From: Escherichia phage SD2
Length of the DNA: 64,000 bases
Reading direction: 5' to 3' (one strand)
Sequence record: PQ821640
In this document: in pieces, positions 3,477 through 44,467 of the stretch
Numbering within the stretch: the stretch's first letter is position 1
How the letters are laid out: each line of letters opens with the position of its first letter
Made by a program: the position numbers and the translations under genes
The notes under the pieces: model-generated
Databases searched by the model: none
What the model saw: the letters and a program-made list of their open reading frames with translations, nothing else
Told to the model about the DNA's origin: nothing

Positions 3477-4073
3477 TTACTCGAACCAATCGTCGCCAGC
3501 GCCAAACGCTTTAACTACATCGTAAATGTCAAGCCCAGCTTTACCGACACCATACGCTTTCAGTTTCCATTCGCTATCTTCTCGCACCAGGGAGGCAACG
3601 TGGCAAATGGTGTTACCTGCAAGTTCTGGAGCCAAGAAGTCAAAGTCCAGCAGTTCAACATTACGTTCATCATCGAAGATTTTAAGGAAACCTTCGGTAG
3701 CGTGACCAAGGCGTTTCTTACCCGTTTCGTCATCAATAGTAATTACGAATGCAATTTCTTGTGCTTCAGCAGAGATATTATCCAGAGTAACATCAATCTG
3801 CTCCATCTGTCCTACACCATCACGAACATCTTCACCTGCAAAAGTAGAACGTTCAGGATCAAATTTCTGCGCGTAGCACACCAGGTGACGAGGAGACAAC
3901 AGTTCCGGCAGACCAGATGCATTGTGTCGGCAAATCAGAGCACTAACATCCAGATCCAGTTTTTCGTTAGATTTCCAAGAGAATTCCAGACGAATGCGTT
4001 TCAGTGCTGGTGCGATCTTTTTCAGAGAAACTTTTTCGCTAGAACCTTTTTTCAGGGAAATTTTCTGAGTCAT
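3477..4073 (-). CDS. terD: TerD-family stress protein
   Basis: 198 aa; N-terminal ISLKKG..KVSLKK, LDLDVSAL, C-terminal EWKLKAYG typical of the TerD domain. Confidence 0.8.
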   Translation of the reverse strand: MTQKISLKKGSSEKVSLKKIAPALKRIRLEFSWKSNEKLDLDVSALICRHNASGLPELLSPRHLVCYAQKFDPERSTFAGEDVRDGVGQMEQIDVTLDNISAEAQEIAFVITIDDETGKKRLGHATEGFLKIFDDERNVELLDFDFLAPELAGNTICHVASLVREDSEWKLKAYGVGKAGLDIYDVVKAFGAGDDWFE

Positions 4074-4145
4074 AATTTATTATCTCCTTTGTTATTAATT
4101 TACGTTGTCTATTTTACTAATCTTTTCTACAAAGTCAAGCGTTTT

Positions 4146-4940
4146 TTACGCTTTTGCTCCGAATTTTTTAACCCACTCACCAAACTCTTCGGATAACAGT
4201 TTATCGTAAAGTTCTTCATCAGACAAGGACAAATCTGCAATACCGATAAAATCAACATTATCGTACTCTTTTGCCAAGTCTTTCAGGAATTTAAAGTTTG
4301 CATTACCTACACCAACCATAAACCAGTAAACAGGCGTATTGCGGTGTTTGTTCAGTAAGCTACGTACTGCTGAAGTATCCATGTTTTCCCCGTCAGTCTG
4401 GAAGAAAATCATTGCAGGAGTACGATCAACTTGTGCATTAGTATCTACAACCTGTTCTACAACAGTACGTGTTACTTCTACAAGTTCTTTTTTACCAGTT
4501 AGTTTAGCAAGGAAACCCTTAGCTGGGACTTCTTCATACTCAACGACTTCGCGTGTAATATTTTTCATAGGTACACTACCGAAGTATGTATCATAGATCT
4601 CCTGCATTACTGGAGCATAAGCAGTACCACCGTTGATGCAAACATTAGACATGCAAGAGCCGACATAATCATCATACACATCAGCCGTTGCAGGGGGCAG
4701 TTCAAAAGAAGAACTATTGAAAGCCCACATGTCAATCTGTGCATTGTCATCAAACTTCATACCAAACGGCAGCAGTTTACCTACAAAATCACTAACAGTG
4801 CCATCACGATACAGCTCACACATACTACCCGAAATATCTAAGGCGCTACCGACACGAAGAACAACATCGTTAATCTTTTTCTTACGCAGAGATACAGTAA
4901 GAGTTTCTTGACGTTTTTTAAGACTGATTTTATTGGACAT
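4146..4940 (-). CDS. vWA-domain protein (TerY/TerF-like, MIDAS motif)
   Basis: 264 aa; DISGSM MIDAS-like motif; N-terminal ISLKK repeat; sits between TerD and TelA-like genes. Confidence 0.6.
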   Translation of the reverse strand: MSNKISLKKRQETLTVSLRKKKINDVVLRVGSALDISGSMCELYRDGTVSDFVGKLLPFGMKFDDNAQIDMWAFNSSSFELPPATADVYDDYVGSCMSNVCINGGTAYAPVMQEIYDTYFGSVPMKNITREVVEYEEVPAKGFLAKLTGKKELVEVTRTVVEQVVDTNAQVDRTPAMIFFQTDGENMDTSAVRSLLNKHRNTPVYWFMVGVGNANFKFLKDLAKEYDNVDFIGIADLSLSDEELYDKLLSEEFGEWVKKFGAKA

Positions 4941-4941
4941 A

Positions 4942-5211
4942 TTATTTCTCCTTTCTGAGTGTAATGTTAGTAACTTCTAAATCCACTTCGACTACTTCTG
5001 TATCATATAAAATACAGTTAAGTTGACCTCTTTGTGAACCGTTCAGACACATTGCTTGGTTTGTATTAACCTTAATAAACACTAAGTTTCTGAACGTATC
5101 TAAACCAGAATCTTGATAGGCAACATAATATACGAATGTATCACCTGCGTCAAGTTCTCCAAAACATTTAGGTTCATCTGATTTGTCGTCTTTGATATTA
5201 AATTTAAGCAC
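4942..5211 (-). CDS. hypothetical protein
   Basis: ORF track 89 aa. Confidence 0.45.
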   Translation of the reverse strand: MLKFNIKDDKSDEPKCFGELDAGDTFVYYVAYQDSGLDTFRNLVFIKVNTNQAMCLNGSQRGQLNCILYDTEVVEVDLEVTNITLRKEK

Positions 5212-32363: not shown

Positions 32364-32915
32364 ATGCGGATTACTGATAAGTATGTGTTCTTCTTTTCAG
32401 CAAAAGATGAATTTAGCAACTGGTATCTATCATCTTTTATTGAACCTTTAGCACCCAAGTATAATAATTCTATTACAAGTTCTGTTGAATTTACTTGTGT
32501 GGAACAATATATGATGTGGAGAAAAGCATGTTTGTTTTATGATTACAGTATTGCATCTTCTATTTTAACCGGAGATCTAAGATATACAGGAGAAAAAGAA
32601 CAAGCATATTATAAGCGACTAGGCAGATTAGTTAAAGATTATGATGAAGATACCTGGACTTCTTTACGGGAGAAGATTGTCAAACGTGGTTTGTATCTTA
32701 AATACACACAAAATGAAGATCTCAAAAATAAACTTATAACCTACGCAGATAAGGAGTTCGTAGAGGCAAGCCCTTATGATTCTATTTATGGTATCAAAAT
32801 GGGGATGTGGGATCGTGACGTGGAAAATAAGGACTGTTGGAAAGGACAAAATCTTTTAGGAAAATGGCATACAGACCTTGCTGTTTATCTAAAAGCACAA
32901 TCTGATATTTCCTGA
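32364..32915 (+). CDS. NADAR (YbiA-like) domain protein
   Basis: 183 aa; EFSNW, EQYMMWRKACLF, LGRLV, KFTQNEDLKNKLITY..EFVEAS..D..YGIKMG pattern of the NADAR/DUF1768 family. Confidence 0.7.
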   Translation: MRITDKYVFFFSAKDEFSNWYLSSFIEPLAPKYNNSITSSVEFTCVEQYMMWRKACLFYDYSIASSILTGDLRYTGEKEQAYYKRLGRLVKDYDEDTWTSLREKIVKRGLYLKYTQNEDLKNKLITYADKEFVEASPYDSIYGIKMGMWDRDVENKDCWKGQNLLGKWHTDLAVYLKAQSDIS

Positions 32916-32940
32916 TATTTTGAAAATTTTTATTTTTATA

Positions 32941-32955
32941 AAAAGGGGTGTGGGT
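32941..32955 (+). promoter_or_regulatory. AAAGGGGTGTG motif, copy 1
   Basis: Recurs at 44180 and 44259 at the borders of the cassette array. Confidence 0.3.
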
Positions 32956-33129
32956 TTCATGTACGGAAATTCACCCTCTGAATAATATATTCAGAGTAAA
33001 TATTATTTTGTACTCTGTTAATAAATTATTTAATTTGTTTGTTGGATTATGATATCTGGTTTTTAAAAGGCATACTATCTCTTAACTACTACTTATAACA
33101 GAACAGTAAAATCATTTTTATAAAAAGGA

Positions 33130-33340
33130 CAAAATTATTTAAAGTTTTTACAGATTTTTGGATACAAATTTTGAAAATGAAAAGTTCAAGTTTGGTCAAA
33201 ATTATTTAAAGTTTTTGTATGTATTTCTATCCAGATTTTGAAAATGAAAACTTCAATTTTTTAAAAATTCCCCAGTTTATTTAAAGTTTTTTTACCTTTT
33301 TCCGTAGAAAAATCAAAAATGAAAAGTTCAATTTCGTGTT
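33130..33340 (+). repeat. three tandem ~68-70 bp repeats (ATTTAAAGTTTTT ... ATTTTGAAAATGAAAAGTTCAA)
   Basis: Direct repeat units at about 33130, 33198 and 33266; each contains the inverted repeat TTGAA..TTCAA. Confidence 0.6.
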
Positions 33341-33349
33341 TTTATGGGT

Positions 33350-33470
33350 ATGCGTATGATAATCATTCTCATTTGTAAATGAGAATCATTATCATTTAAT
33401 TATGTAAATGATAAGCATTCTCACTAAGAGAATGAGAATCATTAGCAAATGAGAATTTTTCTCATTTGCA
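33350..33470. promoter_or_regulatory. cluster of at least 4 Fur-box-like palindromes
   Basis: ATGATAATCATTCTCATT, AATGAGAATCATTATCATT, AATGATAAGCATTCTC, AATGAGAATCATTAGCAAATGAGAA versus Fur consensus GATAATGATAATCATTATC. Confidence 0.45.
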
Positions 33471-33479
33471 GAATAACGC

Positions 33480-34100
33480 GCAGGGGCGGTGTTTGTCTCG
33501 CGCTCCCGTGTCCCCTCGCCATACAATAAGAATAGCATAACCAACAACAAAAGCAAGCGATTATTTTTATCTTTACATTTCTTTACAAATTTATTTTAGA
33601 CGAGCTACCGGCGATCAACCTTCCAACCAGTGCCCCTGGTATGTTAGCCCCGCCTTTACGCCGTGGGGGTGGCGCTTCCTCTTCTGTATGTAAAACAGTA
33701 TAAGCCCGATCCCTGGGCTTGTCAAGATTATTTTTTGTTTTCTTGCCAGGATAGGACACCTAACCAAAAATACATGTCGCCCCGTGCCCCTGGCGGGATC
33801 TTGCTTTCCCCGCCGCCACTGCAAGCCCATAAATAACCATTTACGAACGTATCAAAGTGATCTATCTCTTCCACCTTATGATCGCCCAGGTTGAGAACGG
33901 TTTCAACCTTTAAGCCCGTTGCGCTTGCTACCTGGTGCACCGTGCCGCCTTGCCAGCCCAATGAGTGCATGAGATGTAAAGGAGTATTTGTCATGGTATC
34001 GCCCTTTCTTTGATGTGCGCCCTGGTTGGCGCGGTAGAAAGATAATAGCCGTTTCCTTTATAGATAGCAAGCAAAAAAGAAATGAAAAAAGATTAAAAAA
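33480..34100. other. GC-rich compositional island
   Basis: Visibly higher GC than the flanking AT-rich sequence. Confidence 0.5.
33728..33994 (-). CDS. hypothetical protein encoded in the GC-rich island
   Basis: ORF track 88 aa; overlapping alternative frames present. Confidence 0.3.
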   Translation of the reverse strand: MTNTPLHLMHSLGWQGGTVHQVASATGLKVETVLNLGDHKVEEIDHFDTFVNGYLWACSGGGESKIPPGARGDMYFWLGVLSWQENKK

Positions 34101-34104
34101 ATGG

Positions 34105-34166
34105 TTGACGTTCCTCACCTGGTAGCGTAGTATTCATCTTGTCGAGGGGCGGCAATAGTGCCGCTC
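34105..34166 (+). promoter_or_regulatory. cassette 1: promoter (TTGACG-17-TAGTAT) + 5' hairpin GGGCGGCAATAGTGCCGCTC
   Basis: Sigma70-like boxes; hairpin starts ~8 nt after the -10. Confidence 0.6.
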
Positions 34167-34188
34167 ATAACAGAAGAGAGAAATAATC

Positions 34189-34461
34189 ATGGCATCATAT
34201 AGCGCATCAATGATCGTAGCTGGCATCACTGGTAAACCTATGCGCGGTGGCGGATCTTTCGCTAACATCAATATTGATGGACGTTTATCCCTGGACGCAG
34301 CGATCACAGTGGCACGGGAAACGTTTAAAAAAGAATGTAATTTCAATAAACAAGATTATCTCGGTTTCGCTATTGAAAAAACCGCGCGATTTGTGGATTA
34401 TAAAAGCCCGAAAATGATCGACACTACACTAAAAGCGCAAGATGTAGCGTTTTTGCTTTAA
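34189..34461 (+). CDS. hypothetical protein (cassette 1)
   Basis: ORF track 90 aa. Confidence 0.55.
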   Translation: MASYSASMIVAGITGKPMRGGGSFANINIDGRLSLDAAITVARETFKKECNFNKQDYLGFAIEKTARFVDYKSPKMIDTTLKAQDVAFLL

Positions 34462-34464
34462 GTC

Positions 34465-34524
34465 TTGACACTGAAAAATAATTTGGTAATATATACTCCA
34501 TAAGGCGGGAAATGGTTTCCCGCC
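34465..34524 (+). promoter_or_regulatory. cassette 2: promoter TTGACA + hairpin GGCGGGAAATGGTTTCCCGCC
   Basis: Consensus -35, TG-extended -10; canonical hairpin core. Confidence 0.65.
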
Positions 34525-34546
34525 AAAACAAAGAAAGGGTAACACA

Positions 34547-34909
34547 ATGAGCAAGCAAATCAATACTATCATGTTAAACCTGGTATCTTTCCGCGATGAC
34601 GTGAAAAACCTTTCGCGTGATGCAGTGGATGCACGGATCGAAAGCTATCGCACACAGATCGCAACGTTACCGCTGAAACGTGATCAACATGCCGCTAATA
34701 TGATGCTTGATGCTATGATTAAAAAGATGATTCAATGTGATCTTACCCTGGCTTATGAATATGCTGGCGATCTCTTTGTAACATATAGCAAGCCCGTTCC
34801 AGGTATGAGCACCACGGAAGAATTGCATGCCTTAAATCTGCGACAAGATGCATGGGATAACATGCGCCGTGTTATGGTATGGGTAGAAAGCGGTAAAATT
34901 TACGAATAA
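34547..34909 (+). CDS. hypothetical protein (cassette 2)
   Basis: ORF track 120 aa; RBS AAGAAAGGG. Confidence 0.55.
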   Translation: MSKQINTIMLNLVSFRDDVKNLSRDAVDARIESYRTQIATLPLKRDQHAANMMLDAMIKKMIQCDLTLAYEYAGDLFVTYSKPVPGMSTTEELHALNLRQDAWDNMRRVMVWVESGKIYE

Positions 34910-34915
34910 AAACGG

Positions 34916-34969
34916 TTGACATTGCACTAAAACCTGATAAGCTATCTTAAAGCGGGAATTGTTCCCGCT
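34916..34969 (+). promoter_or_regulatory. cassette 3: promoter TTGACA + hairpin AGCGGGAATTGTTCCCGCT
   Basis: Hairpin variant preserves pairing. Confidence 0.55.
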
Positions 34970-34987
34970 TACATAGGATAAAACTTT

Positions 34988-35134
34988 ATGAAACAATATG
35001 TAATGAGTATTCATACCAAAAACGGCGCTACTGTTACGACTCCGGCACGGTTTGCACTTGTAAACCGTTGCAAGAGACTAAAACGAGAGTTAAAAAATAA
35101 CCGTGCAACGGGCTTTAAACGCTGGGGAGGATAA
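34988..35134 (+). CDS. small basic protein (cassette 3, ~48 aa)
   Basis: Manual ORF; stop is followed by GGAGG and the TTG start of the next gene; approximate. Confidence 0.4.
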   Translation: MKQYVMSIHTKNGATVTTPARFALVNRCKRLKRELKNNRATGFKRWGG

Positions 35135-35136
35135 TC

Positions 35137-35397
35137 TTGTTTTTTCTAAAAGTTTTTGATAATGTGATCGCTTTTGAACATGCTACAACGTTCGACCTGG
35201 CGAGATACGCTATCAGGTTTAAAGATAATGTTTATCCCCGTGCTGGCGGCGGTTACACTATTTTTAATCATCGCAACGCGCAACTGACTGATGTAACTAA
35301 TCCAGATCCTGGAGTGTATCGCATAGGCTGGCTACCGTCAAAAGACGCGGCAAGCATGTTTAAGTTATGTAAACTACTAACAGAAGAGGCGAACTAA
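35137..35397 (+). CDS. hypothetical protein (TTG start)
   Basis: ORF track 86 aa; TTG start 6 nt after GGGGAGGA. Confidence 0.5.
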   Translation: MFFLKVFDNVIAFEHATTFDLARYAIRFKDNVYPRAGGGYTIFNHRNAQLTDVTNPDPGVYRIGWLPSKDAASMFKLCKLLTEEAN

Positions 35398-35398
35398 C

Positions 35399-35953
35399 AT
35401 GGGGCGTGAATATGTGATCCAGTCCTGGGTAAAGCATGACGCAAATGATCCGCGCATAATACCAGATGACATGATCGATCACATGGTGGGGTATAGCGGG
35501 GAGCAGATAGGAAATCGAGCGGCAAAGAGCAACGGCAACACCAGAACGAGATCCGTTCGCCCTGGATGGCTGGCAAATGGTAACGCTGACATTGCAAGCG
35601 CCGCAGATCCAAGCGATGACGCTAAAAATAATCCCTTGTATAACATTGATCCGGCTTTTAAGGTGTTGGAAGAGTATCCCGCTAAATTAGCCGCACTAGA
35701 TAAAGCATACGAAGAAAAACGGGTGGCATGGACTGTATACAACACCGCTAAAATGGTGCTAGATGCAAAATTGATTAAAGCCCAGGAGAAGATCAATAAA
35801 CTTGTTACCATAGCGCAAGAGGAAGACCAGGACGACCAGGAGGAAGAGGAAGAAATCATGCCTATCCTGGAAGAGGAAGAGATCCAGCCATACATGCCGA
35901 CGGAAGAGGAAAAAAGACAAGCCTTAAAAAATTATAAAAATTGTATTGTGTAA
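35399..35953 (+). CDS. hypothetical protein with acidic D/E-rich C-terminal region
   Basis: ORF track 184 aa; RBS GAAGAGG. Confidence 0.55.
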   Translation: MGREYVIQSWVKHDANDPRIIPDDMIDHMVGYSGEQIGNRAAKSNGNTRTRSVRPGWLANGNADIASAADPSDDAKNNPLYNIDPAFKVLEEYPAKLAALDKAYEEKRVAWTVYNTAKMVLDAKLIKAQEKINKLVTIAQEEDQDDQEEEEEIMPILEEEEIQPYMPTEEEKRQALKNYKNCIV

Positions 35954-35956
35954 GGC

Positions 35957-36013
35957 TTGACATATGCAAACAAGCCCCGTAATATGTACCACATAGAGCG
36001 GGGCAACGCCCCA
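35957..36013 (+). promoter_or_regulatory. cassette 4a: promoter TTGACA-17-TAATAT + hairpin GAGCGGGGCAACGCCCC, no ORF directly after
   Basis: Followed ~20 nt later by a second promoter; possible short leader or small RNA. Confidence 0.5.
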
Positions 36014-42772: not shown

Positions 42773-42939
42773 AAACGTTCACCGAAAAAAGTGAATAGAT
42801 CGCGGTATCGAGCTAATCAAGGAGCAGATGAACAACCATACCATGAAGATCATAAGGCGCTTACAACGTGTTTTAGACCGCTTATTTTTAATTTCTTCAT
42901 GTAACTATCTGGCAAAAACAGCCTTTTTCTTGTCTTTCC

Positions 42940-43020
42940 TCTTAAATGATAATCATTCTTATTTATAGCTGATTATTTATGCAATAAACTGAATAATGTA
43001 ATAATGATAATCATTCTTAA
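42940..43020. promoter_or_regulatory. two Fur-box-like sites (AAATGATAATCATTCTTAT; ATAATGATAATCATTCTTAA)
   Basis: 14-16 of 16-18 positions match Fur consensus. Confidence 0.45.
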
Positions 43021-43844
43021 CTTAAGACCATCTAACCTATAAAATAATAAGTTATCTAACTAAATTAAAACTAATTATCTCACCTTTATTTATAACTTAC
43101 TGTTACTATCTCATTGATAACCTTATATTAAACAACAATAACTAATATAAATTATTACTAAGCTAAATATAATCTATCTAACCTTTAAAACTATAATTAT
43201 AATCTATCGAATTGTTGCACAAAGTAACTATTAAATTGTTAGTAACATTACTAAATAATTAATATCCTATCTATTTATGATCTAATCTTTACCTTCCTAT
43301 TTATTACCTAAATAATCATTTCATACCGTAATCATTTCATACAATAATTATAACAAGAAATATAATTAACAAGCGTATCATTAGCAGCCTATGCCGGACA
43401 CATAGGCGGCTAATAATAACGCAACTACACACCCCACATAATAACCATCACCGATAGTTATTATTTGTGCTTATGTAGCTTGCAACAACTGCAAGCGCAA
43501 CAATATACATGGTATATTGTATTCCCTTACATTGTTGCGGTGCGTTATTATTAGCTAATGTTTGGAACATTGGCTATAATATAAGCTATCCAATAATAAA
43601 CATAGTGAATAATAACCCTGATGATCATAATGCGCCACCTTCCAGGGGGCGCTATGTGAACACAAAGAAATCTTTCTTGTCAAGAAAAATATTACCATTA
43701 TTGCGCAAAATTATTTACATCTGAATAGATGGTTTTTCATACTATTGCCCCATATAGCCTATCATTTGTTGAGCCTACTTTCTTAAAAGCGCAATAAATT
43801 AGAATTATCTTGATTTTTAGGGCGTTTTATAGTATAGAAAATAT

Positions 43845-43865
43845 GCAAATGATAATCATTATCAG
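43845..43865. promoter_or_regulatory. Fur-box-like site GCAAATGATAATCATTATCAG
   Basis: 16/17 match to GATAATGATAATCATTATC. Confidence 0.5.
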
Positions 43866-44029
43866 TTATCTTCCACGGGTGGCACTATTTCACGCAGGAT
43901 CATTTCATTTGGCAAGGTGTATATAGATGTTTAGACTTGCCAAGCCATTGATTTGCTTAGAATTTATCTGTTTTGTTGTGAGTAATGCCTTTCTTGCTCA
44001 GAAAATAATCAAAAGTCTTATAAGTCATT

Positions 44030-44062
44030 GAATGATAATGCAAATGATAATAATTCTCATTG
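44030..44062. promoter_or_regulatory. Fur-box-like tandem site GAATGATAATGCAAATGATAATAATTCTCATTG
   Basis: Overlapping GATAAT hexamer repeats. Confidence 0.4.
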
Positions 44063-44179
44063 ATATTTGAGGGGGACGGTCAGCAGAAATCGGGGGGCGC
44101 TGAAAATCGCGTTAAGCACCTCTCGCAAGCGAGCAGTATTTTGCGGCAAGTTATTGATATTATTGACTTTACGCTTATG

Positions 44180-44290
44180 AAAAGGGGGTGTGTCGAAATA
44201 AATCGGGTATACCGGAAAATTTTTGTGGCATAGATATTTATTTGTCTATATTATGTACAAAGGGGTGTGTTAAAAATATTAGGTATATAT
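44180..44290 (+). promoter_or_regulatory. two copies of AAAGGGGTGTG-N-AAATA-N-T(C/T)(G/A)GGTATA motif
   Basis: 44180-44210 and 44259-44290; upstream of the 44468 operon. Confidence 0.35.
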
Positions 44291-44467
44291 AGAATAATTG
44301 ATAGGGAAATCCTATACTAAATCCTTCATTATTGCAGCGGGTGAAAGACAGAATCGAAGATGCAAATAATGCTTGCATTGGATAGAAATGTCTGTATAGT
44401 GGTTTGCATACCGCGCACGACGCGTTTCCATTTTCAATAAAATGTTAGCATTATGGGGAGGTAGAAA

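Follow-up and report, generated by a model that had tools for sequence, protein, structure and literature searches.

Promoter-driven origin RNAs are known from oriF and oriG of phage T4, from the primary origin of phage T7 with its tandem promoters, and from RNA II of ColE1. Another well-described arrangement is the phage moron, a self-contained, sporadically distributed gene with its own promoter and terminator. Among the rV5-like phages, phiTE carries pseudo-ToxI, a 36-nt tandem repeat that resembles ToxI and is expressed in infection (PMC3475682), and the box of the envelope-stress regulator CpxR has the consensus GTAAA-N5-GTAAA (PMC4846824). Here we describe a locus of Escherichia phage SD2 (PQ821640) that shares features with each of these systems. 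It lies in a stretch of 64,000 nt (the window, whose positions serve as coordinates throughout) and centers on an island rich in guanine plus cytosine (GC) at 33480-34100, which an earlier note had taken for a recently acquired host-derived moron, or else for a structured RNA or DNA element. The window comes from a phi92-like myovirus (Justusliebigvirus, Stephanstirmvirinae); over 33000-34600 its best match is Escherichia phage W22 with an identity of 98.6%, compared to 96.2% for phi92.

On balance, we consider it probable that the island makes up the right, GC-rich half of a non-coding control region (32916-34188, ~1.27 kb) found in all phi92/rV5-like phages, and that it comprises three leftward units arranged head to tail. 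The first unit would be gp224, a gene that has a promoter to itself and points away from the first rightward early cassette. In the second unit, a promoter termed P1 would make a structured RNA of ~100 nt (33690-33590) once the host RNA polymerase meets the injected DNA. The third would begin with a tandem TGTAAAGA repeat that matches the CpxR box and sits immediately upstream of a second promoter, P2. The P2 transcript, together with any read-through from P1, would run through a GC-rich leader (33522-33477) and Fur-box-like palindromes, and then into three repeats of ~70 nt each. Overall, the region would work as an early non-coding module, driven by the host polymerase, that makes a small structured RNA and directs regulated transcription towards repeats and operators.

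The RNA unit consists of the following features:

33697-33725, minus strand: promoter P1, TTGACA-17-TATACT, matching 11 of 12 consensus positions and beginning 2 nt past the gp224 stop codon
33590-33690, minus strand: structured RNA element of ~100 nt, recognized by conservation, covariance-model match and covariation
5' part of the RNA element, minus strand: purine-rich leader
33674-33671 with 33662-33659, minus strand: stem S1, CGCC/GGCG, invariant
33668-33665 with 33651-33648, minus strand: possible pseudoknot, CCCC/GGGG
33642-33636 with 33630-33625, minus strand: hairpin B, with compensatory changes
33615-33608, minus strand: invariant AUCGCCGG
33612-33599, minus strand: weak 3' hairpin of the RNA element

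Sequence comparison revealed that the block common to distant relatives is not the open reading frame (ORF) of the island but query positions 101-225, corresponding to window 33570-33694, and this block is mostly unannotated in those relatives. Over ~100 nt the RNA element, the part of the island with the widest conservation, has a mean column identity of 83%, with CGCC...GGCG and AUCGCCGG invariant, and it is nearly identical among phages of Escherichia, Klebsiella, Cronobacter, Pectobacterium and Salmonella. With 29 sequences as input, a covariance model gave a single match in the window, at 33590-33690 on the minus strand, with a score of 112 bits. Divergent members from a metagenome scan brought the set for the pairing and covariation test to 39 distinct sequences; a hand-drawn structure and a model-based alignment were used here, because the variable hairpin led RNAalifold astray on the raw MAFFT alignment. 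In this set 88.4% of the cells pair, compared to 29-50% with the partners slid, and the covariation score is 0.167 versus 0.077 in shuffles, none of which reached 0.167 (0/500). Compensatory changes occur in four of the six pairs of hairpin B, namely 49:71 (AU in 25 sequences, GC in 13), 51:70 (AU in 25, GC in 3), 52:69 (CG in 35, GC in 3, GU in 1) and 54:67 (AU in 16, CG in 9, GC in 3). Moreover, the hairpin varies in length by 5-8 nt, and a coding role of the element is therefore ruled out. These compensatory changes beyond the controls support a conserved structured non-coding RNA, so that the structured element of the earlier note is supported for 33590-33690 on the minus strand, the 100 nt that follow the ORF, and not for the ORF itself. 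A pseudoknot between the CCCC in the S1 loop and the downstream GGGG is a tentative addition, hinted at by ACCAA/UUGG variants; its pair 26:40 is CG in 29 sequences, AU in 5 and U-G in phage 4MG.

P1 occupies the same place in 32 of 32 aligned sequences, which cover all lineages. Its hexamers score 9-12 of 12 with a spacing of 17-18 nt, and they are kept while the spacer sequence varies, a pattern indicative of a near-consensus sigma-70 promoter with a predicted start at ~33690. In the window the spacer is a GC-rich palindrome (33702-33720) that scores as a terminator-like hairpin at 33720-33702 and looks like it doubles as the terminator of gp224. We infer that the RNA is made and acts as RNA; a literature search for transcriptomes or small RNAs of the rV5/phi92-like group found no relevant publication.

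Searches of Rfam 15 with lax filters, over 8 kb plus 321 nt, returned only chance-level matches to ohsC (16 bits, E 5.9) and, elsewhere, to rsmX (E 0.93). The RNA thus belongs to no Rfam family, and would be a new small structured phage RNA with promoters. ARAGORN detected no transfer RNA (tRNA) or transfer-messenger RNA in the window or in five related loci, and the window holds no complementary target of at least 13 nt, only chance-level 11-12-mers. A scan of viral contigs with a 14-base pattern gave nearly all chance matches. Homing endonucleases typically insert into sequences that are important and highly conserved. In Raoultella phage Ro1 (L080 6287-7129) a gene for a 197-aa homing-endonuclease-like protein (phrog_953, E 8e-79) is inserted in the RNA element; the upstream copy of the element is cut at its 3' end, and a second, divergent copy lies downstream of the gene. 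The Ro1 insertion is as expected for a conserved, important target.

The unit that follows directly on the RNA element comprises three features:

33570-33589, minus strand: CpxR-like box TTTGTAAAGAAATGTAAAGA, a tandem TGTAAAGA repeat with an 11-nt period, directly after the RNA element
33529-33556, minus strand: promoter P2, TTGCTT-16-TATTCT, from sequence reading and the 32-sequence alignment, with a predicted start near 33522
33477-33522, minus strand: GC-rich leader of P2, GCGAGGGG...CCCCUGCGC, then GUUAUUCU, at the left edge of the island

A pattern search located a perfect GTAAA-N5-GTAAA at 33586-33572, and the alignment showed that the box is kept in most lineages. Compared to the box of the Escherichia coli cpxP promoter, CTTTACgttgtTTTACa, the window box reads CTTTACatttcTTTACa in reverse complement. 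Like promoters of the cpxP/cpxR type that respond to CpxR~P, it thus has the perfect consensus, flanked as in cpxP (CTTTAC-N5-TTTACA), and lies upstream of a sub-consensus -35 hexamer. In Vequintavirinae, P2 reads TTGCAA-17-TATATT and the box ends 3 nt before the -35; in phi92-like phages this distance is 13 nt owing to an insertion of 10 nt. The spacing hence shifts by exactly 10 nt between lineages, which is one helical turn, so that the helical phase is kept, as a bound activator that has to face the polymerase would require. The phage arrangement differs from the CpxR~P promoters in that the box belongs to a virulent phage, is oriented to its promoter in the opposite way to cpxP, and is centered on a predicted site near -49, or near -59 in the phi92-like phages. 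Downstream, the P2 leader has the conserved blocks GAGACAAACACC and CCUGC, for which RNAalifold gives no consensus structure.

The IMG/VR database was scanned with the box 20-mer, and the combination of box and promoter was defined as GTAAA-N5-GTAAAGA-N3-TTGC. This pattern occurs at 51 distinct sites, 27 of which are followed by a good -10 hexamer at 16-18 nt, compared to a background of 5.8%; without rV5-like homologues the hexamer follows 16 of 40 sites, against the same background. Phage T5 carries the 20-mer TTTGTAAAGAAnnGTAAAGA at ~5077-5096 (L125:9721-9740; also L180/L181), in the first-step-transfer terminal repeat between T5.009 and hegG, as do many T5-like phages. The T5 copy adjoins a leftward promoter-like site, TTGCGC-17-TATTAT, and its reverse complement agrees with the CpxR box of cpxP in 15 of 17 nucleotides. 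A contig ~95% identical to Hafnia phage Zyzzx (L145) has five copies of the 20-mer (at 1319, 2330, 2843 and 4797, and one on the minus strand), four of them directly upstream of a promoter. A podovirus-like contig (L095) has three copies of box plus promoter, and further contigs also match. The box is fixed 3 nt upstream of the -35 in the Zyzzx-like and podovirus-like contigs and also in a contig of jumbo-phage size. These matches suggest a recurrent, putatively early, promoter class in phages that include ones unrelated to rV5. We infer that CpxR may bind the box and that P2 may be tuned by CpxR~P; a literature search for CpxR-dependent phage promoters found none. If the box does bind CpxR, lytic phages would read a host stress pathway upon infection. 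It would be a long shot to go further and propose that unrelated virulent phages of Enterobacterales use the envelope-stress signal from their own adsorption and DNA injection to start early non-coding transcription, coupled in rV5-like phages to a pseudoknotted RNA and origin activation.

Transcription from P1 and P2 would head into the AT-rich left half of the control region, which contains two kinds of repeats:

33351-33470: cluster of inverted repeats resembling Fur boxes (AATGAGAATCATTATC and others), downstream of P1 and P2
33114-33334: three AT-rich direct repeats of ~70 nt each, towards which P1/P2 transcription heads

The three direct repeats are candidate iterons; they are arranged next to an AT-rich stretch (GC 0.20-0.25) and lie beside the island, not in it. 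The layout of three repeats (62-79 nt, spacing 67-76 nt) plus palindromes is kept with differing sequence in 4MG, K23PH08C2 and pEa_SNUABM_56, the repeats of distant relatives lying at L005:1131-1335, L006 (K23PH08C2):1093-1297 and L184:909-1124, and phage CB7 has short three-copy repeats spaced by 63-78 nt, plus palindromes. Among the inverted repeats, AATGAGAATCATTATC fits the Fur-box-like consensus at 15 of 16 positions; such matches number 21 in the window versus 1.9 expected, and Klebsiella and Pectobacterium relatives have similar sites in the position corresponding to 33351-33470. The palindromes at 33351-33470 may bind host Fur or a phage protein. No credible minus-strand gene was found downstream of P1/P2.

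This layout resembles that of the promoter-driven origin RNAs, in that one or two strong promoters face an AT-rich, repeat-bearing non-coding region and the transcript would be G-rich, with no downstream gene on its strand. It differs from them in having neither DnaA boxes nor an inflection of the GC skew. A further difference is that the window RNA has its own conserved fold, something that the origin transcripts of T4 and T7 can do without. By this analogy, leftward transcription may, as a tentative possibility, activate an origin of replication in the repeat region or prime it, and we regard a trans-acting small-RNA role of the element as equally tentative. The literature yielded no mapped origin for the rV5/phi92-like group, and should replication be primed or licensed by the RNA, this would place the origin for an entire phage subfamily.

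Several observations weigh against the control module as proposed. For the RNA, stem S1 is without variation and, because it is invariant, provides no covariation evidence; the pseudoknot can pair in the variant ('type 2') sequences only after a shift in register by 1 nt, and some of these retain only two or three of its pairs, one just two. Single-sequence folding of either strand is no better than that of shuffles (z -1.2), and no clear intrinsic terminator follows the element. The wobble-pair strand test is neutral (35 G-U cells balanced by A.C cells), so that the assignment to the minus strand comes from P1 only. For the promoters, P1 and P2 are consensus matches and CpxR is assigned by sequence likeness; a perfect GTAAA-N5-GTAAA has a chance expectation of 0.38 per window, and the box is reduced to one half-site or lost in the Serratia, Erwinia and W70 lineages. 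For the origin, 32900-34200 contains no TTATCCACA-like DnaA box, and the cumulative GC skew has no turning point at 33.5 kb; its turns, near 28 kb and 56 kb, coincide with flips of gene orientation. In addition, the rV5 genome paper marks a 'non-coding' box and could not place the origin (PMC3606486).

Other readings of the 100-nt block have to be weighed against these data. One is a cis-acting leader, of the attenuator or riboswitch-like kind, that gates P1 read-through into P2, the Fur-box region and the repeats. Its two CGCC and two GGCG blocks make alternative pairings conceivable, its 5' domain is compact and pseudoknot-like, its weak 3' hairpin precedes a U/A-rich tract, and read-through is likely as there is no obvious terminator; however, the variant sequences do not support an alternative nested pairing, Rfam gives no riboswitch match even with lax filters, and the same strand lacks a downstream gene for such a leader to control. 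We thus consider this reading unlikely, and marginally less so than one in which the block acts as double-stranded DNA, a structural site or a protein-binding site for origin or packaging functions that P1 just transcribes through. Long invariant runs without covariation (ATCGCCGG, CGCC...GGCG), the strand-neutral wobble statistics, the nearby repeats and palindromes, the missing clean terminator and the linearization of several deposited genomes in or near the region would all suit a DNA site. Compensatory changes in four of six hairpin-B pairs, with the stem kept although the hairpin varies in length, agree by contrast with RNA or single-strand folding and not with recognition of a duplex, and a strong promoter is fixed at the 5' edge of the block in every lineage. 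Less probable again is an early anti-defense decoy, in which the RNA mimics an antitoxin RNA, a CRISPR (clustered regularly interspaced short palindromic repeats) repeat or another host RNA and neutralizes a host immunity protein. It would account for the strong early promoter and the pseudoknot-like fold, and has a precedent in the pseudo-ToxI RNA of phiTE, which blocks ToxN (PMC3475682). Both are non-coding RNA loci of rV5-like phages and phiTE (L077) also carries the present element, but here the RNA is single-copy, lies at another phiTE site and has no similarity to ToxI. A ToxI or pseudo-ToxI identity was rejected, as neither the window nor the 8.9-kb phiTE locus around the element gave a match beyond chance 12-mers. 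Near-identity of the RNA across phages of five host genera would also be unusual for a decoy of a strain-specific defense, and the absence of a complementary stretch of at least 13 nt elsewhere in the window speaks against it as well.

The moron reading, a self-contained gene of foreign composition recently acquired from a host and placed between phage cassettes, is by far the least probable and is largely refuted. What speaks for it is the deviant composition of the island (GC 0.47 versus 0.373) and of gp224, whose GC content at third codon positions (GC3) is 0.53 versus 0.295 ± 0.069 in 44 long ORFs and whose codon-adaptation index of 0.517 is below every one of them. As in morons, gp224 has its own (candidate) promoter and a terminator-like hairpin, in an orientation opposite to its neighbors; it is, however, neither sporadic nor host-like. 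Sensitive blastn of the island retrieved 236 phage records from Stephanstirmvirinae and Vequintavirinae. Coverage reaches at least 80% of the island in 126 of these records, and the Vequintavirinae matches, in phages of Klebsiella, Salmonella, Cronobacter, Pectobacterium, Serratia, Erwinia and Enterobacter, are 67-85% identical. Its presence is not patchy: one locus is occupied throughout both subfamilies, and the neighborhood is syntenic in each lineage inspected. A blastn search of 5,426 complete E. coli genomes gave no match. A 19-base core of the RNA element had four matches in 185,579 species genomes, of which the one genuine match is a 4-kb phi92-like contig in a metagenome bin; no genuine bacterial match was found among them. 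At the protein level, gp224 homologues are 40-99% identical yet syntenic and under purifying selection, and they lie on phage-sized contigs save for one entry labelled 'E. coli', which is a contig of 145.8 kb. The atypical codon usage of the ORF is real, but the adjacent early cassettes share its GC3 shift, which argues against recent import. The island is therefore an old part of the main non-coding control region, not recent host DNA.

That the island stands out in GC was confirmed by a sliding-window check, with 0.470 at 33480-34100 compared to 0.373 for the whole window (z = 3.46). Only 0.4% of 621-nt windows across the 64 kb match this value, and the highest-GC windows of 200, 300 and 500 nt all lie inside or overlap the island. 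On the left it directly adjoins a GC minimum (0.20-0.25 at 33000-33400), while the right-hand edge is soft because GC stays elevated (0.43) over the adjoining 2 kb, where the plus-strand cassettes lie (34000-36000). The first rightward early cassettes (34189-35953) have a GC3 of 0.37-0.49 compared to 0.295 in long ORFs, and codon-adaptation indices of 0.53-0.63 compared to 0.709. As they share the shift in GC3 and codon usage, the compositional shift is regional, perhaps one typical of early genes. The plus-strand GC skew is -0.1 to -0.2 over 33500-34000, so that a minus-strand transcript would be G-rich. The high GC within an AT-rich genome is explained by the codon usage of gp224, which is host-like, by the palindromic spacers of the promoters and by stable RNA and hairpin elements.

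The right part of the island and its border contain:

33728-33994, minus strand: gp224 homologue of 88 aa (Phi92_gp224, phrog_19316), a predicted five-helix protein
34042-34070, minus strand: candidate sigma-70 promoter of gp224, TTGCTA-17-TATTAT, 9 of 12 in a consensus scan
34105-34133, plus strand: promoter serving the first rightward early cassette, TTGACG-17-TAGTAT, facing away from that of gp224

The 88-aa minus-strand ORF reported earlier (33728-33994, MTNTPLHLMHSLGWQGGTVHQV...) is present exactly as claimed, and is the sole minus-strand gene between plus-strand genes, antiparallel to its flanks. In phi92 it is annotated as Phi92_gp224, 'hypothetical protein'. A protein search gave 21 cluster representatives with identities of 40-99%; the homologues retrieved have 86-93 aa and keep the motifs LMxxLGWQGGTVHQVAxATGL and FWLGV. 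Homologues in Certrevirus (phiTE, CB7) share the N-terminal half of gp224 at the same position. The ratio of nonsynonymous to synonymous polymorphism (pN/pS) is 0.06-0.16 in seven close relatives, with differences mostly at third codon positions, and the raw pN/pS is 0.40 against W70. gp224 is thus a real gene under purifying selection. Its predicted fold is a five-helix bundle (predicted local distance difference test score, pLDDT, 93.4), for which no known relative was found, and it has no significant sequence or fold match to a helix-turn-helix family. In an rV5-like metagenomic contig (L126:4535-4795) the homologue is stopped after 19 codons while tblastn aligns all 88 residues, which is possibly a pseudogene or a sequencing error.

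The candidate gp224 promoter stands back to back with that of the first rightward cassette. The gap between gp224 and the gp226 homologue (33995-34188) is an indel hot spot compared to the phi92 stretch 3498-4250. phi92 carries an additional cassette, gp225, between gp224 and the gp226 homologue, and many relatives have an insertion of ~260 nt there that is absent from the window.

Altogether, an anonymous GC-rich patch is resolved into parts, namely a conserved predicted RNA gene with a covariance model, an orphan small protein and a putative promoter class. The RNA could enter genome annotation where the region is now blank or mis-annotated, and rV5/phi92-like phages are common therapeutic and typing phages. 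The CpxR-like promoter class, which rests on sequence, is the more surprising lead.

Two minor observations concern neighboring annotation and repeats. The feature table of OY757067.1 (Klebsiella phage vB_Kpn_K23PH08C2) puts twelve tRNAs and HNH pseudogenes over the control region. ARAGORN detects no tRNA in this ordinary control-region sequence; the tRNA-cluster context was rejected as an annotation artefact, and the annotation appears to be shifted relative to the sequence. A second extensive non-coding region of the window, also AT-rich (42900-44450), has Fur-like sites at 42945-42963, 43000-43018, 43845-43866 and 44043-44061. One of them is a perfect AATGATAATCATTATC (43848-43863) that follows closely on a sigma-70-like TTGATT...TATAGT, the classical arrangement in promoters that Fur represses.

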